Assembly: GCF_000936425.1 (NCBI RefSeq)
Contig: NZ_AVFK01000047.1
Coordinates: 1-32,000, forward strand
Origin: Skermanella aerolata KACC 11604
GTDB lineage: Bacteria > Pseudomonadota > Alphaproteobacteria > Azospirillales > Azospirillaceae
DNA: 32,000 bases
Direction: 5' to 3'
The notes under the pieces were generated by a model that was not told the origin of the DNA, did not search any database, and was given only the letters and a program-made list of their open reading frames with translations. The position numbers were made by a program, and so were the translations under genes. Shown here piece after piece: positions 3,596 to 26,452 of this stretch (within the stretch, counting starts at the first letter, position 1; each line of letters begins with the position of its first letter).

Positions 3596-3691
3596 GCCGA
3601 ATTCTCGCCGGGCGCGATGCCGCTCCCGTCCTTCATGCGGAAACAAGCTTCCCCGCATGAAGAACGGGTGAATTTAGATGGGAGGAAGCAT

Positions 3692-4870: not shown

Positions 4871-4899
4871 TGGACCATGATCAACGGGAAGGACTCCTG

Positions 4900-5310: not shown

Positions 5311-5346
5311 AAACCAGGCGATGGGCAGATCGGGGAGGGACCAGGG

Positions 5347-6080: not shown

Positions 6081-6175
6081 TGCCCGATGCGACGAGCGCC
6101 TTTGGAAGAAACGATGGAGACCCTTCTTCGGAAAGCGTTGCCTTGAGTACCGAGAGCCGATCCGGAGACTGCGGA

Positions 6176-7210: not shown

Positions 7211-7398
7211 TAAATAATATTATACATACAAGATTTTTCACGAGAATTTTCTATATTCTAAGGTCGATTCAGTATTTTCCAAATCGAAACCTGGCATTCA
7301 ATATTGATATTTCAGGGGTCTAATTATTGATTGTCCTCTGAATATCTTACTAGTTTGATCCGTTTCAAGGATAAGAATGATCAGAATGACAAAAAAAT

Positions 7399-9603: not shown

Positions 9604-9625
9604 CGGCCTGAAGATCCAAGGGGGA

Positions 9626-12340: not shown

Positions 12341-12356
12341 AGGCATGCATATTGCT
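12341..12356 (+). promoter_or_regulatory. Sigma-54-like -24/-12 element AGGCAT-GCATA-TTGCT upstream of pmoC
   Basis: GG at 12342-12343 and GC at 12354-12355 have exact consensus spacing, and the -12 TTGCT is perfect. It lies about 190 nt upstream of the pmoC ATG. Confidence 0.45.
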
Positions 12357-13459: not shown

Positions 13460-13481
13460 TCGTCATCGATCGATCTCGACA

Positions 13482-13505
13482 GTAGCCCGCTTCAGGGCGG
13501 GCTAC
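13482..13505 (+). promoter_or_regulatory. Perfect 9-bp stem / 6-nt loop hairpin (GTAGCCCGC ttcagg GCGGGCTAC) in the pmoC-pmoA spacer
   Basis: Read directly. No U-tract follows, so it is more likely an mRNA processing or stability element than an intrinsic terminator. Confidence 0.5.
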
Positions 13506-13631
13506 CTCCTCCATCGGCAACAACGAAGGCAAAGAGGGCATCTTCGACCCCGGCGACCGGCGCTCTTGGCGGAAGCCTCGGAAAAACGAAAACCAATCAA
13601 AGGGCAGGAAACATCGAAGGAGAGCAATACA

Positions 13632-14447: not shown

Positions 14448-14548
14448 CGGCCCTTGGATGAACGGCTGCCGGTGCTGACACACCGACAGCCGCCCAGTGG
14501 ATCCAACGGTACGGATAGGCATGCACCATAAACGTCGGAGGAAAAGTT

Positions 14549-15832
14549 ATGAGGGGTTGGCAGAAGTTCAAGTCCATCGCGCGCAAAATCATGACACGCC
14601 GTGTCTTTGGACTGGCGATGGGAGCCGCGGTGGGACTGACGGCGAACGTGATGACGACGGCGCCGGCGGAGGCCCACGGCGAGAAGTCGCAGATGGCGTT
14701 CCTTCGGATGCGCACCGTCCAGTGGTACGATCTGAAGTGGTCGAAGACCGACGTCAACGTCAACGATGTCGTCGAGATATCCGGCAAGTTCAATGTCTTC
14801 TCCAATTGGCCGCAGGCCGTGATGAACCCGGACGTCTCGTTCCTGAACGTCGGCGAACCCGGTCCGGTATTCGTCCGCGAGGCCGCCTATATCAACGGTC
14901 AGCCGGTTCCCCGGTCGTTCTCTCTGACGCCCGGCGAGCGGTACGATTTCAAGATCCTGCTGCGGGCGCGGCGGGCCGGCGACTGGCACGTCCATACCCT
15001 GATGAACGTCGAGGGCGGCGGCCCCATCATCGGGCCGGGCGAGTGGCTCAAGATCAAAGGATCGATGGCCGACTTCATCAACCCCGAGACCACGCTGGAC
15101 GGGCGCAAGGTCGATATCGAGACCATGGGCATCGGCACGATCTACGGCTGGCACTTCCTCTGGTTCGTCGCCGGCGTGGCCTGGATCGGCTACTGGTTCT
15201 CACGCGGCGGCTTCGTCGGGCGGTACTTCGGCGTGGTCGCGGGCAAGGGCGACACGATGATCTCGCCCAAGGACGAGAAGATCGCCTTCGCGTCGCTGGC
15301 GGCGACGCTGGTCGTGGTCCTGGTCGGGTACAGCATGGGAGAATCCGGCAGCCCGCGCACGCTGCCGCTCCAGGCGGGCCTCCTGAACATCCCGGCGTCC
15401 GATCCGGCTCTCTACCCGAAGGACGTTTCCATCAAGTACGAGCGGGCGACCTACAAGGTCCCCGGCCGAGAACTCGACGTCACCTTGCAGATCACGAACA
15501 ACGGCACCTCGCCGCTGCGGATCGGCGAGTTCGCGACGGCGGGTGTCCGTTTCCTCAATCCCGATGTCATGAAGGAGCCGGTGAACTATCCGGACTACCT
15601 GCTGGCGCCCCAGGGCCTGTCGCTGTCCGACGCACAGCCGATCCAGCCGGGCACCACCAAGACCCTGGTCATCAAGGCGCAGGACGCGGCCTGGGACGTC
15701 GAGCGGCTTTCCGACCTCTACTACGACACGGACAGCAGCATCGGCGGCCTTCTGTTCCTGTTCGACGAACAGGGCAACCGCCACGTGCTCGAGATCGGCG
15801 GCCCTGCCGTTCCCGATTTCCAGACGACCTGA
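14549..15832 (+). CDS. pmoB: Particulate methane monooxygenase subunit B
   Basis: 427 aa with a GGAGGA RBS. The signal peptide ends AEA/HGEKSQ (canonical N-terminal His). The WHVH motif (GDWHVHTLMNV) is present. Confidence 0.95.
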   Translation: MRGWQKFKSIARKIMTRRVFGLAMGAAVGLTANVMTTAPAEAHGEKSQMAFLRMRTVQWYDLKWSKTDVNVNDVVEISGKFNVFSNWPQAVMNPDVSFLNVGEPGPVFVREAAYINGQPVPRSFSLTPGERYDFKILLRARRAGDWHVHTLMNVEGGGPIIGPGEWLKIKGSMADFINPETTLDGRKVDIETMGIGTIYGWHFLWFVAGVAWIGYWFSRGGFVGRYFGVVAGKGDTMISPKDEKIAFASLAATLVVVLVGYSMGESGSPRTLPLQAGLLNIPASDPALYPKDVSIKYERATYKVPGRELDVTLQITNNGTSPLRIGEFATAGVRFLNPDVMKEPVNYPDYLLAPQGLSLSDAQPIQPGTTKTLVIKAQDAAWDVERLSDLYYDTDSSIGGLLFLFDEQGNRHVLEIGGPAVPDFQTT

Positions 15833-15869
15833 ACCGGCACTGCTCGAACGTCCGCACTTGATGGGAAAT

Positions 15870-15906
15870 GCCGTCCTGGATCGCTGAAACGGCGGCTCAG
15901 GACGGC
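15870..15906 (+). terminator. Stem-loop after pmoB (GCCGTCCTG-N19-CAGGACGGC) followed by GATTTCTTC
   Basis: Perfect 9-bp arms, read directly, with a weak T-run. It may be a partial terminator or attenuator between pmoCAB and the downstream copper genes. Confidence 0.45.
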
Positions 15907-15984
15907 GATTTCTTCACCGCGGGGATGCCGCGCACCGGCTTCGATGCCCGCGCGTCTTCACCGCCCAGCCTTCGGTCAAGGATC

Positions 15985-16650
15985 ATGCATGTGCCCGTGA
16001 AAAAAACTCTCAGCCGGGCGATCGGCGCCGCTGCGCTTGTCCTGACCCTGCTGCATGCCCCGGATATCCAGGCTCACGGAGGGCTCAGCGTCGAAGAGGA
16101 TACCTGCGTCCTTCGCCTGGGACCGTACAAGATGCACTTCGTCGGCTACCAGCCCGACAGCACCAAGCAGGAATTTTGCGAAGACATACCTGAAACCGGC
16201 CACACCATCATCGTTCTCGACTACTTCGATCCGGCTTTGCGCAGAATGACGGCCGAAGTCAGGATCATCAAGGACGTCGGCGCACCCGAAACCGGCGACT
16301 TGACGCCGATCACGGTATTCCATCTGCCGCCGGCGCTTCATCCGACCGGCACCTTCAATTTCCAGTACAATTTCCCGCAGCCGGAAAAGTTCATCGGGCT
16401 GATAACGATCCGGGATGGCCAACGGGAATACGTGTCCCGTTTCCCGTTCTCGGTCGGCATGCCGACTTCAAACTGGAGCCTTACCCGCTATGCCGCGATC
16501 TTCGCGGGGCTGGTCATGGCGCTGCTGCTTTACTTCTGGTACCGCCGGCAACATCACACCGTCAAGGTCGCCAGCCCTGCGGGCGCTTCGCCGGACGACG
16601 GATGGGTGCGCGATATTCCGCCGCCGGACCCCAGGCGTGGGCCGCTTTAG
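15985..16650 (+). CDS. Exported, C-terminally membrane-anchored protein with predicted mature N-terminal His; occupies the pmoD position
   Basis: Internal ATG of track ORF 15868-16650, with AAGGA upstream. The signal peptide ends IQA/HGGLSVEEDTCVLRLGPYKMHF. A domain of about 150 aa contains 2 Cys and several His/Met. A TM helix (YAAIFAGLVMALLLYFWY) lies near the C-terminus. This architecture matches PmoD/AmoD-type proteins; homology is not verified. Confidence 0.6.
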   Translation: MHVPVKKTLSRAIGAAALVLTLLHAPDIQAHGGLSVEEDTCVLRLGPYKMHFVGYQPDSTKQEFCEDIPETGHTIIVLDYFDPALRRMTAEVRIIKDVGAPETGDLTPITVFHLPPALHPTGTFNFQYNFPQPEKFIGLITIRDGQREYVSRFPFSVGMPTSNWSLTRYAAIFAGLVMALLLYFWYRRQHHTVKVASPAGASPDDGWVRDIPPPDPRRGPL

Positions 16651-16656
16651 GCGAAA

Positions 16657-18435
16657 GTGGGACCGATGACCATGAAAAGGGCTCATCTGCTCACCATCGG
16701 GCTGACCTGCGGCGTGGCGGCGTTGGTGAACGGAGCGCTGGTGCTCCGTGACATGCCCGCGCTCGGACTGCTCAGCGCGACCGCGCAGGGTATCGACACG
16801 CGCATGCCGTCGATGCCTATGGCCTCGCCCGGCGAGCCTGAAGCGGTCTGCCCGCCGGGCAACGACGAGGCCCGCGCCGGCATCACCGTCGAGGGGGTGG
16901 AGATCGCCCCCTCGACCGCCTGCGTCGCCGACGATCCCTATGTCGTCGCGGCATCGGTCCTGGGCACCAACAACGTATCGGAAGATACGCTGATGCGCTC
17001 CGGCCTGTCGCGCGACGCCGTCATCAAGGGCCGCGACGGCGATCCCAACTACGTCGAGATCCACCTGGAGGTGGCCGAACTCAACGGGTTCAACCCTGAC
17101 GGCGGGCCGCCGCTCCCCGGCTACGCCATCGCCCCCGGCATCAAGCCCGGATTCTGGACATTCGCGCCGAAGCATCGCGGGATGTCCACGGTCAGTTCGG
17201 AATCCAGCGACGCCGGCCCGCTCCTCCGGATGCCGCCGCCCTCGATACGGGTCAAGGTCGGCGATACCCTGCGGATCGTACTGGAGAACACGCACTACCT
17301 GCCGCACACGATCCACCTGCACGGCGTCGATCACCCCTATCTGAACTCTGCCGGGGAAGGCAACGACGGCGTGCCGATGTTCGGCGAGGAAGCCGTCCAG
17401 CCCGGCGAAAGCCGGGTCTATGAGGCCAAGCTTCGGCATGCCGGCACGATGTACTACCACTGCCATGTCGATGAGCAGGCGCACGTCCCGATGGGACTGG
17501 CCGGCATGATAATCGTCGAGGAGAAACAGGCGGAAACGCCGGTCCAGACCCTCAACATCGGCGCCGGCGAGGTCAGGTACCGGTCGGGAGCGGTGCGCAG
17601 TGCCGGCTATGCCGGTGAACACGACCTCGTCTACGGCGATGTCCTGCGTGGGCTGAACAGCCTGCTTTCGACCTCGAACAATGCCCGCGTGATCGAGCGG
17701 CACATCCAGCAGGACTTCAACGTCACCCAGGCCCAGCCGGAGTATTTCCTGCTCAACGGCCGAGCATTTCCCTACACGCTGCGGGAATCCATGATCGCGA
17801 TCGAGCCGGGCCAGCGCGTTAAGCTGCATGTGCTCGACGCCAGCAGCGAATACATCGCCCTGCACACGCATGGTCACAAAGTTCTGATCACGCACCAGGA
17901 CGGGGTCGCGGTACCGCCCGGCGCCCGGACCATGCGCGACGTGGTGGACCTGATGCCGGGCCAGCGGGTGGACCTCGACCTCGATGCCACGGATGACGGC
18001 CTGCACAGCTACGGTCCCGGACTGTGGATGATCCACGATCACCGGCCCAAGGCTGTGACCAACAACGGGATCGGACATGGCGGAAGCATGACCTTCCTGG
18101 CCTATCCCGGATTCCTCGACACTCAAGGCATACCTCGCGCGGCGGCTGATTTGGCGAAGCTTTTCGTGCCGGGCCATTACGCGACCCATGCGTCGGGCAT
18201 GCCGATGCCGGACGGTGCCGGCTCCACGTCTGGTTTCGCCGGGACGGACTGGGCGGGAACCTTGAGGATGGTGGCGCTGCCCTTGCTGCTCACGGGAATG
18301 CTGGTGAGTTTCGGCAGCCTGTTCCGGCGGCGGCGCGCAAGTACTCATGGAGCGGAAGTGAACGGCCGGAACGAACGATCCCCTTCGATCAGAACGATCC
18401 ATTCAGCGAAAACAGCGAAAGGACGACGGAAATGA
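16657..18435 (+). CDS. Two-domain-type multicopper oxidase with a C-terminal membrane anchor
   Basis: Copper motifs occur in the order HTIHLHG (17305-17325), YHCHVDEQAHVPMG (HCH at 17458-17466), HTHGH (17863-17877) and IHDH (18031-18042). The T1 plus half of the trinuclear ligands are therefore in the first cupredoxin domain and the remaining His pairs in the second. The N-terminal region is Met-rich (MPSMPMASPG). A hydrophobic C-terminal helix (LRMVALPLLLTGMLVSFGSLF) is followed by RRRR. The start is uncertain: GTG 16657, or ATG 16666 or 16672. Confidence 0.85.
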   Translation: MGPMTMKRAHLLTIGLTCGVAALVNGALVLRDMPALGLLSATAQGIDTRMPSMPMASPGEPEAVCPPGNDEARAGITVEGVEIAPSTACVADDPYVVAASVLGTNNVSEDTLMRSGLSRDAVIKGRDGDPNYVEIHLEVAELNGFNPDGGPPLPGYAIAPGIKPGFWTFAPKHRGMSTVSSESSDAGPLLRMPPPSIRVKVGDTLRIVLENTHYLPHTIHLHGVDHPYLNSAGEGNDGVPMFGEEAVQPGESRVYEAKLRHAGTMYYHCHVDEQAHVPMGLAGMIIVEEKQAETPVQTLNIGAGEVRYRSGAVRSAGYAGEHDLVYGDVLRGLNSLLSTSNNARVIERHIQQDFNVTQAQPEYFLLNGRAFPYTLRESMIAIEPGQRVKLHVLDASSEYIALHTHGHKVLITHQDGVAVPPGARTMRDVVDLMPGQRVDLDLDATDDGLHSYGPGLWMIHDHRPKAVTNNGIGHGGSMTFLAYPGFLDTQGIPRAAADLAKLFVPGHYATHASGMPMPDGAGSTSGFAGTDWAGTLRMVALPLLLTGMLVSFGSLFRRRRASTHGAEVNGRNERSPSIRTIHSAKTAKGRRK

Positions 18436-19004
18436 TTGGCGGACGCTGCGGAATTGCGCTTCTTGCCTTCGCTTTGCCGATACTGCCTGCGATGGTCGTG
18501 GCACACCCTTACATCGTGGGGTCGGAAGTCGAGCCCGGAGAACATTTCGAAGGCAAGCTCGTGCTGACCCATGACTGCAACAATCAGCCGACTGTCGAAG
18601 TGGTGCTGCGGATGCCCAGGGAGGCGACCCATATCGAGGCGGACAGCCCCAAGGGCTGGAAGAGTTCGGTCGATCCGGCGAAGGGCGAGATCGTCTGGCA
18701 AGGCGGCCCGACACCGGACCGGATGGAGCTTGGGGTATCGTTCGAAGTCCCGCAGGTCGCGGAAGGCACGAAACTCTACATCCCGGTCGTCCAGCGCTGC
18801 ACGGGTGGCGAGGTCCAGCGCTGGGTGGAAATGCCCGACGCGGAAAAGAAGCAGGAAGACTTAGGCTTCCCGGCAGCCTTCGTGATCGTCGGTAAAAAGG
18901 CCGACCTGCCCGAGGGTGAGGAAGCAGCCGACGAGGCGGCGGCGGGCGGCGGGCATAAGCATCATCACCACGGACATCACGGCGATAAGAAGCCGTCGCA
19001 ATAG
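18432..19004 (+). CDS. YcnI/DUF1775-like periplasmic copper-binding protein with an acidic, poly-His tail
   Basis: The ATG overlaps the MCO stop (ATGA at 18432-18435). The signal peptide ends VVA/HPYIVG. The DUF1775-like core reads ...PKGWKSSVDPAKGEIVWQGG...LYIPVVQRCTGGEVQRWVE. The C-terminus is EGEEAADEAAAGGGHKHHHHGHHGDKK and has no TM helix. Confidence 0.75.
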   Translation: MIGGRCGIALLAFALPILPAMVVAHPYIVGSEVEPGEHFEGKLVLTHDCNNQPTVEVVLRMPREATHIEADSPKGWKSSVDPAKGEIVWQGGPTPDRMELGVSFEVPQVAEGTKLYIPVVQRCTGGEVQRWVEMPDAEKKQEDLGFPAAFVIVGKKADLPEGEEAADEAAAGGGHKHHHHGHHGDKKPSQ

Positions 19005-19047
19005 GTCGGCAACCGACATGCGGCAAGGCTGACGACGGAACCAACAC

Positions 19048-21348
19048 ATGCGACAGGGCGGCACTTCAGCAGGGGGAAGACCCTTCCGGGCGGCATTGAT
19101 CTTCATGCTGATCCTGTGCTGGTTCTGTGCTGCCGGCAGCGCCCCGGCGCGGGCCCACGCGATGCTCGTGGGGACCCAGCCCGCCGCCGATGCGCAGCTC
19201 GAACGCGCGCCCGACCGGTTTCAGTTCGAGTTCAACGAGCCGGTCCTGCCGCTCCGGTTCAGCCTGTTCGACCAGACCGGCGCTCCGCTGGCGCTCAATC
19301 CGCCGCAGCGGGAGCCCGGCGACCGCATCGTGCTGCGGCCGGAGGCGGCGCTGGGATCCGGGACCTATCTGCTGAGCTATCGCGTCACCTCGGCGGACGG
19401 CCACCCAGTCGCCGGCTCGGTCCGGTTCCAGGTCGGCGCCGCCGAAACCTCAGCCATCCGCAGCGAGGCTCTCGCCCGCCTGCAAGCCGAAGCGGGGACC
19501 GAGGCATGGCGATGGACCGTCGTCACGCTGCGCTGGCTGCTCTACGCCTCCCTGATCTTCGGCGTGGGCGGCGCCATCGCCCTGGCCCTCATCAAGGCTC
19601 CGGCGTCGATCATGGGGCCGGCCCGCAAGATTGCGCTCCGAGCCTGCGGCTGCGCCGCCGTCCTGCTGGTGCCCTATCACCTGTTCGCCACTGCGGCACT
19701 CCTGGGGGCGACCGGTTTCGCGGTGCTGATGCCGGGAACATGGTGGCTCATGGTGTCGGGGCCGCGTGCCTGGACTCTGGCGGCGACGGCCGCCGGACTG
19801 GCCGCCATCATCTGGCAGCTGTCGAAGGCAGGCAACAAGCTGGTGACGGCGGCTGGCGCCATCGTCGTGGCGCTGGGATTCACCCTGACCGGCCACACCG
19901 CCAGCGCGGAGCCGGCGGCCCTCGTCCGCTCGGCGCTGATCCTCCACATCCTGACGGGTGCGTTCTGGCTGGGGTCCCTGCCTCTCCTGCTGCTGGCCGC
20001 GCGGAGGCTGACGGCGCCGGAGGCCAAGACCGTTCTGGGACGGTTCGCCATCGTCGCGGGGCCGGCCGTCCTGGTGCTGCTGGCCTGCGGCGGGCTGATG
20101 ACCTGGGTTCAGACCGACGGCGACCTGACGGCGCTGTGGACGTCCGACTACGGGGTGCGTCTGAGCGTCAAAGTCCTGCTCGTGTTGGGGCTCCTGGCGG
20201 TCGCGGCCGTCAATCGGGCGAAGCTTACCCCGTCCTTGGCGACGAGGCAGTCGCCCGGCGGCAAGCGTTGGCTCGTCCGGCTGCTGACGGTCGATCACGG
20301 GCTGGCTTTCGTCGTGGTCGCGGCGACGGCGATCCTGTCGCTCGACCCTCCGCCCCGTCTCGCCATGCTTCACGGCACGCACGGCATCAGCCCTTTGGCG
20401 ATGGGATCGGAGATGCGGCTGAGCGCCGGGGAGGAGAAGCTGACTGTCCTGTTCTCCCCCAGCGTGACCGACAGGACGACGGTGACGCTGGACTATCTCG
20501 ACGCCGAGGGCAAGCCGGCGGCGGTCGGGGAAGCGGATCTGCGTCTGGCCCTGCCGGAACGCGGCGTCGAGGAAATGCAGTGGCGGGCGCATCGTGACGC
20601 CGGCGGCAAGCTGCGCGCCGAGAACGTGACCGTTCCCTTCGCCGGCCGCTGGACGCTGGCGGTCGATCTGTTCGTCGACGACTTCACCAAGCGGACCTTC
20701 ATCGGGGAGGCGCGGTTCGACGCAGGCCCCGCGGGGCACGACATGGCCGCGATGGGTGGCGGCGCGCATGAGGGGCCGCACGTCATGATCAGCGATCTCG
20801 ACGGCGCCGTCATGAACGAGAACGCGGACCATCTGCCGATCGACTGCAAGAGCCTGACCGGCGATATCGCGATCACCCTGCATGCCGGCAAGCGCTATGC
20901 CCTGCCCGGCTTCGTGTTCGGCTACGACCGCTATCAGTGGGATGTGCCTGCGTGCAGCCGCGTGACCGTGACGATGGTCAACGAGGACCATGTCCGCCAC
21001 CAGTTCATGATGCACGGCCTGCCGCGCTATCTCTATCCGCAGGGCATGATCCACCTGGAGGCCGATGGCGGAACGAGCCGGCGCGCGACCTTCATCGTGC
21101 CGGCGGCGCCGAAGACCTATTTCGTCCACTGCGACATGGCGCAGCACACTGAGAAGGGCCTGAAGGCCCAGTTGAAGGTAGCGGGAGGCAACGGAGACCT
21201 CCCCAACATCCCCGGAATCACTGCACCCAATCCAGCGGAGGCCGGCCCTGTCCAATGGGTTCCGGCGACCTACCCGACGATCATCGCGGGCCTGCTGCTG
21301 CTCGTGGTGCCGCTGATCTTCGGCGCCGCCGCGTTTGCGCGGCGCTGA
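19048..21348 (+). CDS. copCD: CopC-CopD fusion (YcnJ-like) extended by a YtkA/FixH-like domain, a cupredoxin-like domain and a terminal TM helix
   Basis: 766 aa. The signal peptide ends [12 protein letters not shown], followed by a CopC fold ([20 protein letters not shown]). About 8 hydrophobic helices (CopD) follow, then a beta-rich segment (LTVLFSP...RWTLAVDLF). A His/Met-rich linker ([18 protein letters not shown]) precedes the cupredoxin-like VRHQFMMHG...[15 protein letters not shown] (Cys codon at 21130-21132). The final TM helix is [19 protein letters not shown]. Confidence 0.85.
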
Positions 21349-21410
21349 AGCCCGCTCGGATGCCCGATAAGGACATCACGTGGAAAAACCCGACCAATGG
21401 GAGAGGAAAA

Positions 21411-22046
21411 ATGGCCTGGTGGAAGAAGCACAGCAACGGAAACGGAAACGGAAACAACAACAGGGTCGGCGATAGCTCGATCCACATACACCCCTCGGTG
21501 GATCACGGCGTCGTCCCCGGCAGCGCCAACTTCGGCGGCGGGACCTTGCGCTGCCATTGCGGCCGCGATCCGGTGGAGGTCACGATCAAGGGCAACTCCG
21601 CCCATAACCATGTCTGCGGCTGCACCAAGTGCTGGAAACCGGACGGAGCGCTGTTCTCGATGGTCGCGGTCGTGCCGCGCGACAATCTCCGGGTCACGGC
21701 CAACGCCAACAAGCTGAAGATCGTCGATCCCTCGGCGGCGATCCAGCGCCACGCCTGCGTCGAATGCGGCGTCCACATGTACGGCAGGATCGAGAACAAG
21801 GGACACCCGTTCTACGGCCTGGATTTCATCCACACCGAACTGTCGAACCAGGTGGGATGGAGCGCTCCGGAATTCGCGGCCTTCGTCTCGTCGATCGTCG
21901 AGGCCGGGACCCGGCCCGACGACATGCCGGCGATCCGCGCCCGCCTGCGGGAACTGAGACTGGAGCCGTACGACTGCCTGTCTCCCGCCTTGATGGACCT
22001 GATCGCCGCCCATACCGCCAAGTCCAAGCGTCTTGAGACGGTCTGA
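21411..22046 (+). CDS. gfa: S-(hydroxymethyl)glutathione synthase (glutathione-dependent formaldehyde-activating enzyme)
   Basis: Internal ATG of track ORF 21255-22046, with GGGAGAGGAAAA upstream. Signature motifs [44 protein letters not shown] and [13 protein letters not shown] match Gfa as I remember the Paracoccus enzyme. There is an extra N-terminal [20 protein letters not shown]. Confidence 0.88.
21435..21461 (+). repeat. In-frame microsatellite (AACGGA)x3 (AAC)x3 encoding NGNGNGNNN
   Basis: Read directly in the 5' end of gfa. Confidence 0.9.
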
Positions 22047-22079
22047 CGGCTCGGGCGACTGATTCCCGATTGAGAACCG

Positions 22080-22535
22080 ATGGAAGGACGCGGCAGGCGC
22101 ATGGATCAGAGCGGAACCACGGGGCGCGTGTCCGGGACACGACGCATGGGATGGATCGGCATCGTCGCCGTCCTTGCCATGCTCGTGCGGGCGCTGGTCC
22201 CGGAGTTCTCCATGGCGCTTGCCGGCCCCGCCGGGCAGCATCCCGTCGAGCGTCCGATTGCCGCCGTTTCGGCCGACTGCCATGACGGCGCTTCCTTGGC
22301 CCAGCCGGGTCCCAAGCCCGCTTACGATCCCGGTTCCGATCCTGGTCCCGGCCAGCCATATGGCCCCCATTGTCCGTTCTGTCTGGTTCAGCATGCGGCC
22401 GCCCTGCCCCCGCCGCCGCAGCCCGAAATCTTCATTCCCGCTGAGGACGCCAACTCGCCGTCGCTGCCGGAAACGGATGCAGCACCTCAGCGCCGGCTGC
22501 CGAGCCCGATCCAGCCGAGGGCGCCGCCGGTCTGA
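22080..22535 (+). CDS. DUF2946-like small exported/membrane protein (HCPFC motif)
   Basis: N-terminal hydrophobic segment WIGIVAVLAMLVRALV, a Pro-rich middle, and a GPHCPFCLVQHAA motif characteristic of DUF2946. The start is uncertain (22080, 22101 or 22146). Confidence 0.6.
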   Translation: MEGRGRRMDQSGTTGRVSGTRRMGWIGIVAVLAMLVRALVPEFSMALAGPAGQHPVERPIAAVSADCHDGASLAQPGPKPAYDPGSDPGPGQPYGPHCPFCLVQHAAALPPPPQPEIFIPAEDANSPSLPETDAAPQRRLPSPIQPRAPPV

Positions 22536-22594
22536 ACTTCCCGACCGAACATCCACGATACCCGCTGAAACTCTGACGCGACGGAGTTCCGACC

Positions 22595-23983
22595 ATGACC
22601 CATGTCCTGGGCCAAGCGCGCCCTTACGCCGCCGAGGCGGCACCAGCCGGTAAGCTGTACCGCGCCATCTGGCGCTGGCATTTCTATGCCGGCCTGCTTG
22701 CAGTCCCCTTCATGATCCTGCTGGCCGTCACCGGCTCGCTTTATCTGTTCAAGGATGAGATCGACAACTCAGTCTTCGCCTACCGCAACGTCGTCGCCGA
22801 AGCGGCGACGCCTCCCCTGCCCGTCAGCGTCCTCGCCGCAACGGCAGCGGATGTCGTTCCCGGATCGGCGGCGACCGTCTACCGGACGCCACGCAGCGCC
22901 ACCGGCTCCGCCATGGTCACCGTCAAGACCGATACGGACGGCGACAGCGGCGGCAACATTGTGTTCCTGAACCCCTATTCTGGAGCGGTCCTCGACGTCG
23001 TTCCGGCCCATGGCGAATTCCAGTGGGTGGTCAAGCGGCTGCATAGCCTGGAATATTTCGGCGACTACACCAACCGGATCATCGAAGCCGTCGGCGGCTT
23101 CGCCCTGGTGCTGGTGGTGACCGGGATCTATCTCTGGTGGCCACGCGGGCAATCGGGCGGCGTTCTTACGGTCCGGGCGCAGCCGGCGCAGCGGGTCTTC
23201 TGGCGCGACCTTCATGCGGTCACGGGCGCCGTGGCCGGTCTGGTGATCTTCTTCCTCGCCCTCAGCGGAATGCCGTGGTCAGGGTATTGGGGCAATGCCG
23301 TCAACAAGATCGCCAGCGACAATGGCGTCGGTTATCCGAAGTTCCTGTGGGACGACGTACCCGTTTCGAAGGTCCCGGCCAAGGACGCCTTGGGCAAGGT
23401 AGGCTGGACGGTCGAGAACGCGCCGATGCCGCTTTCCGGAGCACCTTCCGGCGGCGGCGCTCCGGTCGGCATAGACAGGGCGGTCGAGGTCTTCAAGGCG
23501 CGCGGCATCGGTCCGGGTTTCGATGTCACGCTGCCGGACGGCAAGACCGGCGTCTACTCGGCATCGCTGTTCCCCGACATGATCCAGGACCAGCGCATGA
23601 TCCACCTGGACCAGTATACCGGAGAACCGCTCGTCGACCTGAACTTCGCCGACTATGGCGGTTTCGCCAAGGCGGTCGAACTGGGCATCAACATCCACAT
23701 GGGGCAGGAGTTCGGGCTGGCGAACCAATTGCTGATGCTGACGACCTGCCTTGCCATCATCCTGACGTCGGTGGCGGCGGTGATCATGTGGTGGAAGCGC
23801 CGGCCGAGCGGCAAATTGGGCATTCCACCCTATCCACGGGGCCGCGCCGCTTATATAGCACTCTGGGTCGTGGCGGCCATCTTCGGCATCGCTTTCCCGA
23901 TTACCGGGCTCGCCATACTGGCGATGCTGCTGATCGACGCCGCGATCATGGCGATCGCGTCGCGCAGGCGTTCACCGGCTTAG
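22595..23983 (+). CDS. PepSY-associated TM-helix protein (PiuB-like)
   Basis: 462 aa. It has the LYRAIWRWHFYAGLLAVPFMILLAVTGSLYLF opening typical of this family, a large periplasmic region and C-terminal TM helices. ACGGAG lies upstream of the ATG. Confidence 0.75.
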   Translation: MTHVLGQARPYAAEAAPAGKLYRAIWRWHFYAGLLAVPFMILLAVTGSLYLFKDEIDNSVFAYRNVVAEAATPPLPVSVLAATAADVVPGSAATVYRTPRSATGSAMVTVKTDTDGDSGGNIVFLNPYSGAVLDVVPAHGEFQWVVKRLHSLEYFGDYTNRIIEAVGGFALVLVVTGIYLWWPRGQSGGVLTVRAQPAQRVFWRDLHAVTGAVAGLVIFFLALSGMPWSGYWGNAVNKIASDNGVGYPKFLWDDVPVSKVPAKDALGKVGWTVENAPMPLSGAPSGGGAPVGIDRAVEVFKARGIGPGFDVTLPDGKTGVYSASLFPDMIQDQRMIHLDQYTGEPLVDLNFADYGGFAKAVELGINIHMGQEFGLANQLLMLTTCLAIILTSVAAVIMWWKRRPSGKLGIPPYPRGRAAYIALWVVAAIFGIAFPITGLAILAMLLIDAAIMAIASRRRSPA

Positions 23984-24006
23984 GCGCGCGAGGGGAGCGG
24001 GGGGGA

Positions 24007-24036
24007 GCCACGTCGGGTCTTACTACCCGACGTGGC
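24007..24036. terminator. Perfect 12-bp stem / 6-nt loop hairpin between convergent genes (GCCACGTCGGGT cttact ACCCGACGTGGC)
   Basis: Read directly. It sits between the PepSY stop (23983) and the csp1 stop (24047), so it is likely a bidirectional terminator. Confidence 0.6.
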
Positions 24037-24046
24037 GAGCCTGGGG

Positions 24047-24529
24047 TCACGCGTCGACCTTGCGGCACTCCTCCGCGCAGGAAGCGCAGGCGTCCGCACA
24101 GGCCTTGCAGGTCGCATGCTTCTCGTGTTTCCGGCATTCCTTCTCGCAATCCTGGCAGACTTGCAAAACCACCTTGCTCATGGCCGGGACGTAGCTGGAG
24201 CCCATGGCGGAAAGCTCGGCGAGGCTGCCTGTCGCGGCTATCAGTTCGCGAACCTTGCTTGCACAGACTGCAAGGGTGGTGTCACCCCCCGCGAAGGTTT
24301 CGAGGCAATGATTAAGGCATACTTCGCCCGTCGTGACGCAGTGGGTGGCCTCCTTCATGAGGTCGCCGTACTTCAGCTTGCCCATGCCGGCGTGGTCATG
24401 CCCGTGCTGGTGTTCGTGCACATGCTCGCCGCCTGCCGGCTTTTCCGGCTGCTGTGCGGCAGCTATCGCGGTCGTAGCAAGGACGCTGGTCGCCCCCGCC
24501 GTCAGGAAGATGCGTCGGTCCATTTCCAT
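24047..24529 (-). CDS. csp1: Csp1-type four-helix-bundle copper storage protein, Tat-exported
   Basis: ATG at 24529 with GGAGG 6 nt upstream (the track ORF start at 24718 is too early). Tat motif MDRRIFLTAGA. His-rich stretch HVHEHQHGHDH. Twelve Cys in heptad-like spacing end ...CKACADACASCAEECRKVDA, closely matching my memory of Methylosinus trichosporium Csp1 (...CKACGEACQACAEECHKVAA). Confidence 0.85.
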   Translation of the reverse strand: MEMDRRIFLTAGATSVLATTAIAAAQQPEKPAGGEHVHEHQHGHDHAGMGKLKYGDLMKEATHCVTTGEVCLNHCLETFAGGDTTLAVCASKVRELIAATGSLAELSAMGSSYVPAMSKVVLQVCQDCEKECRKHEKHATCKACADACASCAEECRKVDA

Positions 24530-24635
24530 AAGCCACCTCCATGTCAAAGTGCGTAAGTTCGGGGTAATCTCCCGCAGTCGGCCGGAGCCGCTGTTGGTCC
24601 AGCGATTCCGGCTGCTGAGGCTATTCAGCCTTGCG

Positions 24636-25490
24636 CTAAGCGTCGATTGACCCGGTGGCGCGACCTTGCTTGCAGTAAGCTGGGTCGACAAATGATGCCC
24701 GCTGGTTCTGCTCGGCAAGGAATGCTGGCGGCAGATCGGATACTTCGACGATTTGGGCGGGTGCCACGGCGATCATCGAGCGCAGCAAGCTGCGGAGTTC
24801 CCGAATGTTGCCGGGCCAGGGATGGGTCATGAAGATTTCCCAGACTTCCTTGCTGAGATATTTGGCTGACTTCACGCTTAAGGCTTCCTGTTCAACATGC
24901 AGGAGATGCCGGATCAGCGCTCTCCTGTCCGGTCGCTCGCGCAGCGGCGGCAGACTGATCTGAGCGCCATTGAGCCAGTCGTACAAGTCGCGGCGGAACG
25001 AACCTTCACATACCGCATCCGACAGAGTCCGATCGGTCATCGCAATGACTTGAACATCGATGGTAATGCGATGTCCCGATTTCCGAAATACGGTCTGCCG
25101 GTACTCGAGGGCCCGGAGAAGCAGCACCTGGAGTTCCGGAGTGAGGTCGCCGACGGCATCGAGCAGCAAGGTGCCTTTGTGCGCATTTTCGAACGCGGGT
25201 GGCGCCATACCGCCCTTTGTGGCGCCGAGCAGTTTTTCCGCTATGGATCGGGCCGGCAGCGTGTCGAAGCCGAGCCGAACCAGAGGCCGATGGCGGCGCA
25301 GCCCTCGGGCATGTATCTGGGTGACGATATAGTCTTTACCGACGCCCGATTCCCCGGACACCAGGATGGGAAGAGTGGCGGCCTGTGCATGCTTCGTGCA
25401 GGCAACGGCCCGGTCGAGTATTGTATCCCGAAATTGGACATTTTGAAAAACCGGGAGGAACGGCATTGATTGAGCGAGTTGGATCGCCAT
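24636..25490 (-). CDS. Stand-alone degenerate AAA+ domain, paralog of the MmoR central domain (no sensor, no GAFTGA loop, no HTH)
   Basis: Walker A GESGVGKDY is identical to MmoR. A long colinear match is RRDLYDWLNGAQISLPPLRERPD...HPWPGNIRELRS versus MmoR RRDLYYRLNGAQIWLPPLRERPD...HPWPGNIRELRN. The GAFTGA region is replaced by LGATKGGMAPP and Walker B reads LLLDAVGD. The protein ends without a Fis-type HTH. The start at M 25490 (ACGGAG upstream) is assumed; the ORF is open to 25667. Confidence 0.7.
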   Translation of the reverse strand: MAIQLAQSMPFLPVFQNVQFRDTILDRAVACTKHAQAATLPILVSGESGVGKDYIVTQIHARGLRRHRPLVRLGFDTLPARSIAEKLLGATKGGMAPPAFENAHKGTLLLDAVGDLTPELQVLLLRALEYRQTVFRKSGHRITIDVQVIAMTDRTLSDAVCEGSFRRDLYDWLNGAQISLPPLRERPDRRALIRHLLHVEQEALSVKSAKYLSKEVWEIFMTHPWPGNIRELRSLLRSMIAVAPAQIVEVSDLPPAFLAEQNQRASFVDPAYCKQGRATGSIDA

Positions 25491-25686
25491 CGGATGTGAC
25501 TCCGTTCGAACTGACAGGCATGACGAAAGGTTCGGGGAGCTGCCGAAGCGCTGACGGCCGTGCGTGACGGTGGCGCTTGCGGGCGCTGAGCAGCGCCCGG
25601 TGATGACCATCGACGACCATGCTCGACGTTTGTGCTCCGCAGAACCGACGGTGCGGTTTCCAGACATTTCCGCAGCAGGAAGCTTT

Positions 25687-26079
25687 TCAGGTGCGCTTAT
25701 CCGGCGGTGGAGCCCGGCTCCTCACGCAGCTCAAGAAGTGCATTGCCGCAGGAGCGCCCATTTTGGCCGGCAGCGATGGCGAAATCCCGGTTAAGCTCGC
25801 GGAACGAGCGCCAGCGTTGTGGGCTGGCGGCAGCAGCGGGGCCGCCTGGACCACGCAGAATGGGCACAGGCCAGCGTGGTCATGGGTCACCGGCTTCGAC
25901 GGGGCACCCGGGTCGCTATCGTGGGAGGGGTGTCCCGCGACGTTGTCAGGACGAAAATCGAGGTCGACCGGTACAATGTTCCGGAACGCCATGGCCAGAT
26001 CGGGCACGGCGATTTGGATGAGAAGGGCAAAGACACCCAACCATGCAGTCAGCCGGTGGCATGCAGCGTGATGCTTCAT
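25687..26079 (-). CDS. Second DUF2946-like protein (LCPFC motif)
   Basis: The internal M at 26079 gives MKHHAACHRLTAWLGVFALLIQIAVPDLAMA (signal-like). The motif HAGLCPFCVVQAAPLLPP parallels GPHCPFCLVQHAAALPP of the first copy. Confidence 0.55.
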   Translation of the reverse strand: MKHHAACHRLTAWLGVFALLIQIAVPDLAMAFRNIVPVDLDFRPDNVAGHPSHDSDPGAPSKPVTHDHAGLCPFCVVQAAPLLPPAHNAGARSASLTGISPSLPAKMGAPAAMHFLSCVRSRAPPPDKRT

Positions 26080-26116
26080 CGGGTCCTGCTTCACTCCATC
26101 CTGTCGCACGGGAGGC

Positions 26117-26132
26117 TGCGAAAGCACCGCCA
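26117..26132 (-). promoter_or_regulatory. Weak sigma-54-like element TGGCGG-TGCTT-TCGCA (minus strand) ahead of the DUF2946-2 / AAA+ / csp1 unit
   Basis: GG/GC spacing is exact, but there are 3 mismatches to the core consensus. It lies about 40-55 nt upstream of the 26079 start. Confidence 0.3.
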
Positions 26133-26452
26133 AGAAAGATGTTTATCGCCGATTGGTGATCGTTGTTGAGTTGGATATGCTTCGATTTGATCACACCAGT
26201 AAAGCTAGCAATAGTCATGCCGATATTCGGAGGCATTGGGACCGGCGGTAGTACTTCGACAACAGGCTGTCCGATATAAAATTGCTCAACACCAAGGCTA
26301 TGTTTCACTTGTGTAATCTGAATACAGTTGTTCAACAATCAAACAGAATTGTTCAATTTTTTGATAGATGTAAATCGGCGCGTCTTCGACCGGCGATCGG
26401 GATTGTCACGACAACGGTGGTGCAGCGACAGCGGTGACGATAATCTGCCAGG

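Follow-up and report, generated by a model that had tools for sequence, protein, structure and literature searches.

Copper-handling genes behind the pmoCAB operon of Skermanella aerolata: a probable composite neighborhood of several regulatory units

Ten genes follow the pmoCAB operon of Skermanella aerolata, and the question they raise is whether they form one system dedicated to supplying the monooxygenase with copper, as the preliminary description had proposed. All ten open reading frames are present at the coordinates claimed there and are contiguous with pmoCAB, and profile searches reproduced the ten family assignments, with corrections. A copper-handling role is supported for most of the products, eight of the ten belonging to copper-linked families. 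The region is probably best explained as a composite copper-handling neighborhood behind a pMMO-type operon, made up of known families and comprising at least three regulatory units. The array is a form of the known extended pmo/amo operon, and a role in copper supply is plausible.

In the window, by which we mean the whole stretch of 32,000 nucleotides analyzed on contig BJYZ01000047.1, gene calls and Pfam matches place a complete sMMO cluster (mmoXYBZDC-mmoR-mmoG, 2015..11314, plus strand; mmoR at 7498-9603) ahead of pmoCAB and the ten-gene array. The gene order of this cluster is that of Methylocella, and its MmoX matches sMMO hydroxylase alpha chains of solved structure with 1084 bits. The operon that follows on the same strand (12545..15832) consists of pmoC (12545-13459), pmoA (13632-14447) and pmoB (14549-15832), whose products match the AmoC, AMO and Monooxygenase_B families of Pfam with 370-510 bits. 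PmoA scores 378 bits against pMMO versus 246 bits against AMO, and PmoB 493 bits against M. capsulatus PmoB versus 357 bits against AMO; in the alignment, His43 of PmoB falls on the first residue of the mature chains, and PmoB retains the WHVH motif. The right edge of the array is formed by an IS5-family element (26585..27690, minus strand) with DDE transposase domains and 17-nt terminal inverted repeats, 82-88% identical to IS copies carried by Skermanella plasmids. This wider setting, with the sMMO cluster upstream and the IS5 element downstream, had been missed earlier. Methane oxidation or growth on methane is undemonstrated for S. aerolata in the literature (PMC4678205, PMC6215863).

The first gene of the array is a pmoD/amoD homologue on the plus strand, recognized by its match to PDB 6CPD (E 8e-21) and without a Pfam match. 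It had been described as an anchored protein with an N-terminal histidine; the histidine is kept, and the identity is now PmoD/AmoD. The ORF could open at 15868, and alignment with homologues makes 15985 the most likely start (15985..16650), so that pmoB and pmoD would be separated by 152 nt holding a hairpin instead of by 35 nt. That hairpin, noticed in the preliminary description, was found by RNA folding to be a strong GC-rich stem-loop (15864..15915, plus strand) followed by GAUUUCUUC; its core stem, GCCGUCCUGG / CCAGGACGGC, is common to the MFE and centroid structures, and it is a candidate attenuator or partial terminator. The protein has a signal peptide, a His-Gly-Gly N-terminus after the predicted cleavage, a C-x8-MH-xn-C motif and a C-terminal TM helix (residues 166-184), and H31, C41, H51 and C65 are invariant across 789 homologues. 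It is closest to AmoD of ammonia oxidizers and falls in the AmoD motif class of PMC6189053; most PmoDs adjacent to a multicopper oxidase (MCO) gene carry C-x9-H. According to the same paper, CuA formation is confined to PmoDs with the C-x7-MxH motif, and PmoD genes are linked to pmo/amo operons, to copCD and, in some subfamilies, to MCO genes. The claim of an undescribed combination must be narrowed accordingly, as its families are known and its PmoD linkage to pmo/amo and copCD was already published.

The plus-strand genes downstream are as closely spaced as had been reported, with a 4-nt ATGA overlap of the MCO stop and the ycnI start and other gaps of 6-62 nt. The MCO (16666..18435, alternative start 16657; Cu-oxidase_3 and Cu-oxidase_2) is a membrane-anchored two-domain enzyme with a TM helix at either end; between the helices lie a conserved N-domain, which contains a Cys pair, and then two cupredoxin domains. 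The cupredoxin domains contain four HxH motifs and HCH, with ligand residues invariant in a family that is mostly gammaproteobacterial. The two-domain MCO 3G5W is the best PDB match of the sequence (E 1.7e-30), and Foldseek places 3G5W and 2ZWN at the top for the model (TM 0.72). Next is a YcnI-like DUF1775 protein (18432..19004, plus strand; 57.7 bits in Pfam) with a predicted N-terminal His and the C-terminal His-rich tail HKHHHHGHHG. It is followed by a CopC-CopD-beta-sandwich-cupredoxin fusion with a terminal TM helix (19048..21348, plus strand), in which CopC and CopD are identified by Pfam and NCBIfam and the tail has weak FixH-like and Cu-oxidase_2 matches. His37 falls on the first residue of mature CopC chains, and the CopC domain, as read from its sequence, has His1 and a DGH motif and is without the Met-rich site. 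The model of the sandwich region has pLDDT 70-84 and is similar to CrdA and FetP. YcnJ-like proteins, 530-560 residues long, are collinear with the fusion, and the importer YcnJ has the same CopC-CopD-sandwich architecture (PMC8424229). The C-terminal domain appears to be a type-1 cupredoxin: H92, H97, H135-C136 and H141 are invariant in its family, and the profile matches blue-copper proteins only, weakly (E 0.006-0.6). Four residues past H141 the family consensus is Met, and the window has Leu. The last gene of this string, gfa (21411..22046, plus strand), encodes an S-(hydroxymethyl)glutathione synthase (TIGR02820, 326 bits versus a cut-off of 234.55), which is a protein of formaldehyde handling and not of copper.

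The two DUF2946 ORFs require another interpretation. Rather than being uptake proteins or otherwise unknown copper proteins of the periplasm, both bear the hallmarks of CruR, an upstream ORF that senses copper and controls the genes after it by ribosome arrest and Rho termination, and that is characterized by an export signal, CXXC, a residue spacing and RAPP near the end (PMC9426467). For instance, cruR-a (22101..22535, plus strand; 40.3 bits in Pfam) has an export signal, CPFC, 45 residues, RAPP, and then V and the stop codon. Similarly, cruR-b (25687..26079, minus strand; the ORF may reach upstream to a TTG at 26133) has an export signal, CPFC, 46 residues, RAPP, and then PDKRT and the stop codon; its Pfam DUF2946 score of 19.8 bits lies under the cut-off, and it was assigned by motifs and alignment. 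Judged by these motifs, both are CruR. Homologues of cruR precede PepSY_TM genes and share operons with YcnI and CopC genes (PMC9426467), and a PepSY_TM gene (22595..23983, plus strand; 214.9 bits in Pfam) begins 59 nt past cruR-a after a C-rich spacer (C 23, G 12). By contrast with the first position found for cruR homologues by Roy et al., cruR-a is not first in its own gene string. The PepSY_TM product has five hydrophobic TM segments with His 29, 150, 207 and 368 at or beside them; by analogy with a PepSY_TM siderophore reductase cited in PMC9426467, these are candidate heme ligands. The protein is a putative periplasm-facing metal reductase.

Downstream of cruR-b, a 196-nt spacer (C 68, G 55) leads to a truncated MmoR paralogue (24636..25490, minus strand; Pfam) reduced to the sigma-54 AAA+ core and lid. 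It has neither sensor domain nor HTH, has lost the region of the GAFTGA loop, and carries DA in place of DE in Walker B. It is 45% identical to the MmoR of the window over 265 residues, the alignment leaving a gap of 7 residues at the loop; searches for orthologues found none, and it could be a decaying duplicate. No copper-ligand signature was seen in this AAA+ protein or in PepSY_TM, and the earlier statement that every product except Gfa carries one was overstated. The last minus-strand gene, csp1 (24047..24529), encodes a copper storage protein (TIGR04401, 150 bits versus a cut-off of 100), a Cys-lined four-helix bundle exported by the Tat route; it has the Tat motif RRIFL, 12 Cys and an N-terminal stretch rich in His.

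How the array is divided can be read from its signals. The sigma-54-type pattern GGYAY-N5-[TA]TGC, scanned over 64 kb (both strands), gave 5 matches versus 1.9 +/- 1.4 in shuffles, which are small numbers. Predicted promoters of this type occur in the window only before mmoX (1936-1949, plus strand), about 200 nt upstream of pmoC (GGCATGCATATTGC, 12342..12355, plus strand) and upstream of cruR-b (GGCATGACTATTGC, 26208..26221, minus strand), the last closely resembling the pmoC upstream sequence. No recognisable promoter of its own was found for pmoD to gfa. In the convergent gap lies a perfect 12-bp GC-rich hairpin (24007..24036), a candidate bidirectional terminator that folds on both strands (z -2.3 and -3.1); folding gave no hairpin in the copCD-gfa and gfa-cruR gaps. 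Because of the hairpin after pmoB, the two CruR-type leaders and the convergent hairpin, the claim of one ten-gene system was not upheld. In our reading the array falls into three or more units: pmoD, MCO, ycnI, the fusion and gfa; cruR-a and pepSY_TM; and, on the minus strand, cruR-b, the truncated mmoR and csp1.

Conservation follows a similar division. In an independent metagenome contig (L004), a sigma-54 activator gene is followed by pmoCAB, pmoD, MCO, DUF1775 and the CopC-CopD-sandwich-cupredoxin gene, the array genes there being about 55-60% identical and in the order of the window, so that the clustering is not due to chance. A second contig (L003) shows pmoCAB-pmoD-MCO as far as its end. 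Both have the same sigma-54 motif class before pmoC, with an MmoR-like activator gene upstream. In a set of 80 metagenome loci anchored on the MCO, a PmoD gene immediately precedes it in 51 of the 65 loci that could be evaluated, a cupredoxin gene comes immediately after it in 65 of 67, and 10 of 33 have a CuMMO operon immediately upstream. What is a separate cupredoxin behind the MCO in other loci corresponds in the window to the C-terminal domain of CopC-CopD. The PmoD-MCO-cupredoxin trio is a widespread self-contained module, whose cupredoxin is fused in Skermanella to a YcnJ-type importer. Its recurrence beside copper monooxygenase genes of many uncultured bacteria offers a way to test PmoD function. 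Of the parallels named earlier, ycnKJI is valid (PMC8424229), and amoCAB-amoE-amoD-copC-copD is present in 80 ammonia-oxidizer and comammox loci. The part of the neighborhood conserved elsewhere is pmoD-MCO-ycnI-copCD::cupredoxin, and only Skermanella showed the gfa, cruR-pepSY and cruR-AAA-csp1 parts; across the 160 related loci, gfa, both cruR units and csp1 had no conserved linkage to any CuMMO, and their position may be incidental.

A working scheme can be proposed. The first unit, having no recognisable promoter of its own, is probably read through from the sigma-54-type pmoC promoter, past the hairpin, and would be co-transcribed with pmoCAB. The His/Met-rich type-1 cupredoxin may capture periplasmic Cu(I) and pass an electron to the MCO, which would reduce O2 with it; the His/Met-rich segment and the fusion suggest Cu(I) as the substrate. 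The resulting Cu(II) would go to the N-terminal-His binders YcnI, the CopC of Cu(II)-only type and PmoD, and from there to import by CopD or hand-over to the monooxygenase. The other units, each headed by a CruR leader, would, by analogy with Bordetella, be on at low copper and undergo Rho termination at high copper. Copper storage protein would then be made at low copper, opposite to the up-regulation by copper implied for csp1 of M. trichosporium (PMC6189053). The direction of copper flow, the copper response and the requirement for pMMO activity are likewise what we infer.

Other explanations have to be weighed. It is unlikely that the ten genes are one co-regulated uptake, redox, storage and switch system dedicated to pMMO copper supply. 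Their tight, convergent packing on both strands right behind pmoB, the predominance of copper-linked families, the joint presence of sMMO genes, pMMO genes and array bounded by an IS element, and the similar sigma-54-type sequences before pmoC and the minus-strand unit speak for it; the leaders and hairpins subdivide the array, however, and only the proximal genes are conserved with CuMMO elsewhere. An alphaproteobacterial MAG (L088), in which a cruR-headed ycnI-copCD::cupredoxin-MCO cassette has no CuMMO within 10 kb upstream, speaks against dedication to the enzyme, and the one-system view is also weakened by two MAGs, of Methylococcus and of Pseudomonadales, in which the trio is found by itself with unrelated genes around it. 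Alternatively, the trio could be a periplasmic redox module for CuMMO electron transfer or for hydroxylamine or NO removal, with YcnI and CopCD merely adjacent, which we consider rather improbable. All three proteins are membrane-anchored copper proteins of redox type, the trio is joined to highly diverse CuMMO operons (PmoA 35-63% identical to that of the window), and the nearest solved MCO, 3G5W, is from Nitrosomonas europaea. An O2-reducing MCO, however, is an electron sink and not a donor. Some PmoD forms have a CuA-like electron-transfer center, and a role as electron-transfer partner was proposed (PMC6189053, PMC13058606); oxidation of hydroxylamine by an archaeal MCO is mentioned through a citation in PMC13058606. 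Nevertheless, the C-x8-MH and C-x9-H motifs differ from the one linked to CuA, and full-length importer fusions, rare as they are, recur in L004 and L088, tying the cupredoxin to copper transport in three independent loci. In L088 the MCO and fused cupredoxin stand behind the cruR-like ORF with no PmoD gene nearby.

A protective, copABCD-style island for copper resistance or general copper homeostasis, brought in on a mobile element along with the MMO genes, is improbable indeed. MCO, CopC and CopD make up the classical resistance composition, Csp1 is a copper store, the array has remnants of IS5 and IS3 at its flanks, and GC content runs from 52 to 71% across the window. The affinities are also mosaic, with a Methylocella-like sMMO order, an ammonia-oxidizer-like PmoD and a mostly gammaproteobacterial MCO family. 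The MCO, however, is unlike CopA/PcoA (TIGR01480, 43 bits versus a cut-off of 479), and no CopB, efflux ATPase, or CopRS, CusRS or CueR regulator is present in the 32 kb examined, nor did a search of a plasmid collection match the array. CruR-headed operons have been described as acquisition systems repressed by copper (PMC9426467). Uptake is favored over resistance within the composite neighborhood, since the L088 cassette is cruR-headed and includes an outer-membrane channel-like gene, and since the CopC domain has His1 and DGH without the Met-rich site in a fusion collinear with YcnJ-like proteins.

A minor observation concerns mmoG (9626-11314, plus strand), which has an in-frame stop at codon 198 in the window, where strain L002 has a Trp codon.

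The ten open reading frames that follow pmoCAB are pmoD, a multicopper oxidase (MCO) gene, ycnI, a copCD fusion, gfa, cruR-a and pepSY_TM on the plus strand, and csp1, a truncated mmoR and cruR-b on the minus strand. All ten and their family assignments, as given in the preliminary description, were reproduced by profile and homology searches. The array is regarded as a variant of the known extended pmo/amo operon. In Methylosinus and Methylocystis such operons run pmoCAB-pmoD-copC-copD-PCuAC; those of beta-proteobacterial ammonia oxidisers and comammox Nitrospira run amoCAB-amoE-amoD-copC-copD (PMC6189053). The window has in common with them that CopC and CopD come after a member of the PmoD family encoded immediately behind the B subunit. 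Compared with these, a membrane two-domain MCO and YcnI are inserted in the window, CopC and CopD are fused to each other as well as to a beta-sandwich and a cupredoxin, PCuAC and AmoE are absent, and the promoter sequence is of the sigma-54 type. PmoD has been linked to pmo/amo operons, copCD and PCuAC, and one subfamily to MCO genes (PMC6189053), and CruR, YcnI/YcnJ and the Csp proteins have been described one by one. In the open-access literature searched, no description was found of the trio of PmoD, MCO and cupredoxin as a unit attached to operons of copper membrane monooxygenases (CuMMO), of the CopCD-cupredoxin fusion, or of the Skermanella array.

The pmoD gene directly follows pmoB. 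Alignment of homologues sets its start at 15985, and pmoB ends at 15832; the pmoB hairpin (15864-15915) therefore falls within the 152-nt gap between the two genes and outside pmoD. PmoD matches PDB 6CPD, a solved periplasmic domain of a PmoD, over query residues 79-197 (E 8e-21), with no match in Pfam or NCBIfam, and its 789 homologues are mostly AmoD and AmoE of ammonia oxidisers. A signal peptide ending in IQA is followed by an invariant His-Gly. C41, H51 and C65 are invariant in the family (C41 and C65 in a 28-sequence alignment), and a hydrophobic C-terminal transmembrane (TM) segment spans residues 166-184. The motif C-VLRLGPYK-MH is the C-x8-MH of the AmoD type, and the greatest similarity is to AmoD of amo operons (180-190 bits), which has C-x8-MH as well. 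The C-x7-M-x-H motif required for a CuA-type centre (PMC6189053) is not present. The protein, judged by its sequence, is a member of the PmoD/AmoD family for which CuA formation is not predicted. Most of the PmoDs adjacent to MCO genes carry an N-terminal HGG and a C-x9-H-xn-C motif.

The closest sequence match of the MCO is 3G5W of Nitrosomonas europaea (E 1.7e-30). Foldseek also placed 3G5W (E 5.5e-23) and 2ZWN at the top with target TM scores of 0.72-0.73, for a model with a mean pLDDT of only 65.5. Pfam assigns Cu-oxidase_3 and Cu-oxidase_2. Like 3G5W, the protein has four HxH motifs and carries its type-1 Cys within HCH of the first cupredoxin domain, with H217/H219, H265-C266-H267, H400/H402 and H457/H459 invariant in 16 family members. 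The protein is a two-domain multicopper oxidase, as predicted from these ligands and the modelled fold. The window protein and its family have a TM helix at each end and, as a further conserved part, an N-domain that spans about 130 residues and holds two invariant Cys. Both helices and the N-domain with its Cys pair are additions relative to 3G5W, and the family is encoded between PmoD and cupredoxin genes.

The two genes that follow encode YcnI and the copCD fusion. YcnI scores 57.7 bits for DUF1775 (cut-off 25) and contains the sequence ...MVVA/HPYIV, which would leave an N-terminal His after the signal, the cleavage site being assigned by reading. It lacks a hydrophobic C-terminal segment and ends in a His-rich tail. 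The copCD fusion (19048-21348) has 766 residues, with CopC at 73.9 and CopD at 68.2 bits. In alignments, H37 falls on the first residue of mature CopC chains, and the CopC part, as read from the sequence, holds the SADGHPVAG motif of the D-x-H Cu(II) site without the Met-rich Cu(I) site. Over its first 555 residues the protein aligns collinearly with YcnJ-like proteins (CopC, CopD, sandwich), of which there are hundreds with 530-560 residues, and the last 200 match stand-alone proteins of 200-345 residues. When the C-terminal part was modelled by single-sequence AlphaFold, the sandwich domain alone was resolved (pLDDT 70-84, resembling CrdA and FetP), the cupredoxin domain remaining below 35. 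In this candidate cupredoxin domain, which is preceded by a His/Met-rich segment, the predicted type-1 copper-site residues H92, H97, H135-C136 and H141 are invariant in 19 homologues. The axial position is Leu in the window, and Met is the consensus among the homologues. Blue-copper proteins were the sole matches in profile searches with this domain, and these matches were weak (E 0.006-0.6).

Bacillus subtilis ycnKJI likewise pairs YcnI, a DUF1775 Cu(II) binder, with YcnJ, which comprises CopC-CopD and a C-terminal sandwich (PMC8424229, PMC12154828). In contrast to ycnKJI, the window lacks the repressor YcnK, its fusion extends further into a cupredoxin domain and a terminal TM helix, and YcnI has the His-rich tail in place of the hydrophobic C-terminal segment. 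The host is also Gram-negative, and the genes adjoin an MCO and a CuMMO.

Conservation of the neighbourhood was followed from two anchors. A PmoD-anchored genome scan gave 80 loci, every one from an ammonia oxidiser or comammox organism with the order amoCAB-amoE-amoD-copC-copD; it did not recover Skermanella itself, the window region being perhaps absent from the genome collection or masked in it. Within 10 kb at these 80 loci, no gene for MCO, YcnI, Gfa, DUF2946, PepSY_TM or Csp1 was found. The nearest relatives of the window PmoD and MCO come from metagenome assemblies. One such contig, L004, carries a sigma-54 activator gene, pmoCAB, pmoD, an MCO gene (59% identity), a DUF1775 gene and a CopC-CopD-sandwich-cupredoxin fusion that is split, probably by a frameshift, in this contig of 4x coverage. 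Another, L003, carries pmoCAB-pmoD-MCO and then ends. An MCO-anchored metagenome scan also gave 80 loci, and counts were taken from those with sufficient flanking DNA. A PmoD-family gene lies directly upstream of the MCO in 51 of 65, a homologue of the cupredoxin domain of the fusion directly downstream in 65 of 67, and a CuMMO B-subunit gene within 1.5 kb upstream in 10 of 33. PmoA of the CuMMO loci shares just 35-63% identity with that of the window, and the CuMMOs at these loci are therefore very diverse. In Methylomarinovum and in two MAGs, one of Methylococcus and one of Pseudomonadales, the trio stands by itself with unrelated genes around it, and the MCO gene of Nitrosococcus wardiae is solitary. 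In L088, an alphaproteobacterial MAG, the MCO gene is preceded by the full four-part fusion, and this in turn by ycnI, a gene resembling those of outer-membrane channels and, at the head, a cruR-like ORF. This fusion is collinear with that of the window at 37% identity, and no CuMMO was found within 10 kb upstream. Full-length fusions are rare, forming about three or four clusters among 1.84 billion representatives, and all three that could be placed adjoin this MCO.

An SBP56-family gene is found 1-1.5 kb downstream of the MCO module in both the Methylomarinovum locus L005 (13042-14382, minus strand) and L088 (12782-14089, minus strand), and L088 has a SCO1/SenC gene (11862-12641, minus strand) downstream of the module as well. 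The SBP56 family includes copper-dependent methanethiol oxidases.

The DUF2946 genes, cruR-a (22101-22535, plus strand) and cruR-b (25687-26079, minus strand), had been taken for periplasmic copper proteins, and this assignment is replaced here. According to PMC9426467, the Bordetella DUF2946 protein Bp2923 is CruR, an upstream ORF. Its nascent peptide senses copper via CXXC, ribosome arrest at a C-terminal RAPP is relieved, and Rho-dependent termination ensues ahead of the genes downstream, which encode a TonB-dependent transporter and a PepSY_TM protein. The hallmarks taken from this account are CXXC, a C-terminal RAPP and about 45 residues between them. cruR-a consists of CPFC, 45 residues, RAPPV and the stop (PF11162, 40.3 bits, cut-off 23.7), and cruR-b of CPFC, 46 residues, RAPPPDKRT and the stop (19.8 bits, below that cut-off). 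Each has an N-terminal hydrophobic segment as an export signal. Since the CPFC, the spacing, the RAPP and the export signal fit CruR, both ORFs would best be read as regulatory leader ORFs and not as periplasmic copper carriers.

The setting of the two ORFs partly resembles that of the copper-repressed cruR-bfrG-bp2921 operon of Bordetella pertussis, which is described in PMC9426467 as being under leader-peptide control and with which the window shares the CXXC, the spacing, RAPP and the export signal. cruR-a begins 54 nt after gfa and lies directly before a PepSY_TM gene, from which a C-rich stretch of 59 nt separates it. The minus-strand string starts with cruR-b; after it come a long spacer, as in Bordetella (196 nt here, 162 nt there), the truncated mmoR, a structured gap and csp1. 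Unlike the Bordetella operon, the window has no TonB-dependent transporter, and cruR-a is located inside a longer gene string and is not its first gene. The cargo of cruR-b, a truncated paralogue of a sigma-54 activator and csp1, is not among the families named in the available part of PMC9426467.

The remaining proteins of both strings were assigned by profile. Gfa reaches 326 bits against the TIGR02820 equivalog (cut-off 234.55), and PepSY_TM is well above its curated cut-off. Csp1 scores 150.2 bits for TIGR04401 (cut-off 100) and contains an RRIFL Tat motif and 12 Cys. It shares the Tat signal and the Cys-rich four-helix-bundle signature with Csp1 of Methylosinus trichosporium OB3b (for the family, see PMC5171941), and differs from it in its 12 Cys and in the position of the gene, ahead of which stand a CruR leader and the truncated paralogue of mmoR.

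The truncated MmoR (24636-25490, minus strand) is 45% identical to the AAA+ core of the MmoR of the window, including the unusual GESGVGKDY Walker A, and 50% identical to a fragment of MmoR of Methylocella tundrae. It has neither the N-terminal sensor domain nor an HTH_8 match, 7 residues are missing at the GAFTGA-loop region, and Walker B reads LLLDAVGD with Glu replaced by Ala. Because the HTH, the GAFTGA loop and the Walker B Glu are missing, the protein is an MmoR paralogue predicted to be unable to serve as a conventional sigma-54 activator. Orthologues of it were looked for and none was found. One short match in Methylocella tundrae was considered and turned out to be part of a full-length mmoR broken by a frameshift; in that assembly (locus L167, LR536450.1, 6719-8815) mmoR is split into pieces of 464, 254 and 26 residues. 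The truncated gene may be decaying. The gap between it and csp1 (24530-24635, minus strand) contains a strong hairpin (z -2.8, unmatched by any shuffle) that could be a processing, stability or attenuation element.

The strict sigma-54 pattern GGYAY-N5-[TA]TGC, searched on both strands, occurs five times in the window, compared with 1.9 +/- 1.4 in shuffles. Three of the five are intergenic, correctly oriented and just upstream of mmoX (1936-1949, plus strand), pmoC (12342-12355, plus strand) and cruR-b (26208-26221, minus strand). Similarly, a near-consensus TGGCAC-N5-TTGC precedes pmoC in L003 (about 3120-3135) and L004 (about 5798-5813), with an MmoR-like activator gene upstream. A loose pattern with 2 mismatches was uninformative (32 found, 32 expected). 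A shared activator site resembling AACAGGTGT, present before mmoX and pmoC and in L004, was not significant (6 matches versus 2.8 +/- 1.6), and a scan of the window for consensus sigma-70 sites and terminators gave sites no commoner than chance. The pmoCAB operons of established methanotrophs have sigma-70 promoters. The clade with a sigma-54-type sequence before pmoC may control its CuMMO differently from these.

No promoter-like sequence was found in the pmoB-pmoD gap and no hairpin in the gaps between copCD, gfa and cruR-a; a perfect 12-bp hairpin lies in the convergent gap. In the simplest model there would be two transcripts. One would run from the pmoC promoter through pmoCAB, the pmoB hairpin and pmoD-MCO-ycnI-copCD-gfa-cruR-a to a CruR checkpoint and pepSY_TM. 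The other, on the opposite strand, would start at its own promoter, take in cruR-b and, beyond a CruR checkpoint, continue into the truncated mmoR and csp1.

The adjacency of the MCO and the cupredoxin is repeated at many loci and the cupredoxin is fused to a CopC-CopD importer, which argues that oxidase and importer share a substrate, and this would be copper. A route from Cu(I) to Cu(II) is proposed on account of the His/Met-rich segment before the cupredoxin, the His1 and D-x-H site of CopC, and the N-terminal His that YcnI, PmoD and PmoB are all predicted to expose. Cu(I) would be oxidised at the cupredoxin and the MCO, and the resulting Cu(II) captured by the His1 proteins and then imported via CopD or passed to the monooxygenase. 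In this scheme Csp1 would store copper in the periplasm, and PepSY_TM would act as a reductase repressed by copper. Alternatively, the genes could constitute a copper resistance system of the copABCD type. This candidate is judged unlikely: the profile of the three-domain CopA/PcoA MCOs, TIGR01480, gives the MCO just 43 bits against a cut-off of 479, and CopB and CopRS were not found in the window. Acquisition is favoured over resistance, as judged from the L088 cassette being headed by cruR, the YcnJ-like architecture, and no efflux or resistance regulator being found.

Several observations stand against the proposed function. With csp1 behind CruR, its expression is predicted to be copper-repressed rather than copper-induced and thus to occur at low copper, unlike the up-regulation by copper implied for csp1 of M. 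trichosporium (PMC6189053). Other genes precede cruR-a in its string, no orthologues of the truncated MmoR were found, and linkage of the distal genes to a CuMMO is not conserved. The preliminary description had proposed a single copper system of ten genes dedicated to the pMMO. Its families stand, and the single dedicated system is only partly supported. A broader reading appears unlikely to us as a whole. It holds that the trio is a conserved CuMMO accessory module in many lineages, either metallating the enzyme through Cu(I) oxidation and Cu(II) hand-on or exchanging electrons with it, and that the CruR-gated truncated MmoR is a copper-dependent modulator. As a modulator, an ATPase-dead MmoR without a DNA-binding domain could join MmoR hexamers. 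Both MMO operons, sMMO and pMMO, would then be linked to copper sensing by way of their sigma-54 promoters, which would provide a concrete mechanism for a copper switch.

The locus bears on the questions of how copper is supplied to pMMO and AMO and what PmoD and AmoD do. The PmoD gene is very often accompanied by genes for a particular membrane-anchored MCO of two domains and for an anchored, predicted blue-copper protein. A CuMMO operon lies immediately before about a third of these trios, and three independent loci have the predicted blue-copper protein joined to a copper importer of the YcnJ type. This gives PmoD specific, testable partners and a testable route of Cu(I) oxidation, Cu(II) capture by N-terminal-His proteins, and import or insertion. 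If true, the metallation or electron-exchange reading of the trio would provide a defined biochemical partner for PmoD. S. aerolata is a cultured, non-canonical host that could serve to dissect the copper control of methane monooxygenase expression: it has a true sMMO as well as an enzyme of the pMMO type, both operons are preceded by sigma-54-type promoter sequences, and two leader peptides of the CruR type are encoded. The CuMMO of strain KACC 11604 had already been recorded, with growth on hydrocarbons unstudied (PMC4678205), and the species has been termed non-methanotrophic (PMC6215863). In a preprint of 2026 it is counted among the putative methanotrophs, the copper genes being absent from the main-text discussion.

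The PmoB of the window is encoded with every residue unchanged on contig BJYZ01000047.1 (assembly GCA_007991775.1), where the locus matches 4549-25832 at 100% identity, and the exact match of the MCO in the protein collection bears the name Skermanella aerolata. The array belongs to a larger block with a complete sMMO cluster upstream, mmoX, Y, B, Z, D and C followed by mmoR and mmoG. MmoX scores 1084 bits against solved sMMO hydroxylases. PmoB scores 493 bits against solved pMMOs and 357 against AMOs, and PmoA 378 and 246. H43 of PmoB aligns with residue 1 of the mature chains, and the WHVH motif is retained. By these comparisons the CuMMO of the window is of the pMMO type, its subunits being clearly nearer to solved pMMOs than to AMOs. 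At the right edge of the block lies an IS5 element (26585-27690; transposase 26638-27606) with 17-nt terminal inverted repeats, which were the sole yield of a repeat search of the window. Copies of the IS5 region occur on Skermanella plasmids at 82-88% identity, and an IS3-type HTH ORF (27790-28119), an IS3 remnant, adjoins the element. The MMO and copper block may be located on a mobile or recently rearranged segment. A plasmid origin was rejected: searches of 72,556 plasmids with 12000-27000 (megablast) and with the MCO (tblastn) yielded nothing beyond fragments of gfa, amoC and IS elements. No Rfam family reached its gathering score anywhere in the window.

Several further features of the region were observed. 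A DUF2189 membrane-protein gene lies just upstream of mmoX (681-1553, plus strand) and another directly after the copCD fusion in L004 (14947-15915, minus strand); it may be a further conserved companion. The order mmoXYBZDC-mmoR-orf-mmoG of Methylocella tundrae is that of the Skermanella cluster. Between mmoG and pmoC, on the opposite strand, is an ORF of 159 hydrophobic residues (11514-11993, minus strand) without a Pfam match, which is called as a gene in both Skermanella strains with zero differences between them. Beyond the IS elements are a hybrid sensor histidine kinase gene (28341-30146, minus strand; CHASE8-like, HAMP, HisKA, HATPase and receiver) and a 560-residue ORF without a Pfam match (30299-31981, minus strand).

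The second Skermanella strain (Logan SRR31513799) is 99.64% identical to the window and has the same genes up to its contig end. In the assembly of KACC 11604, mmoG (9626-11314), the chaperonin gene associated with the sMMO, has an in-frame stop at codon 198 (about 10217-10219), where the second strain has Trp and an intact gene of 562 residues. Expression of the sMMO may be impaired in KACC 11604, or the stop may result from a sequencing error. The coding differences between the two strains, 19 synonymous and 22 non-synonymous, are too thin for a selection test. The copCD fusion holds 23 of these 41 differences, and they cluster at codons 343-402, within the membrane part of CopD, perhaps as a patch left by recombination.
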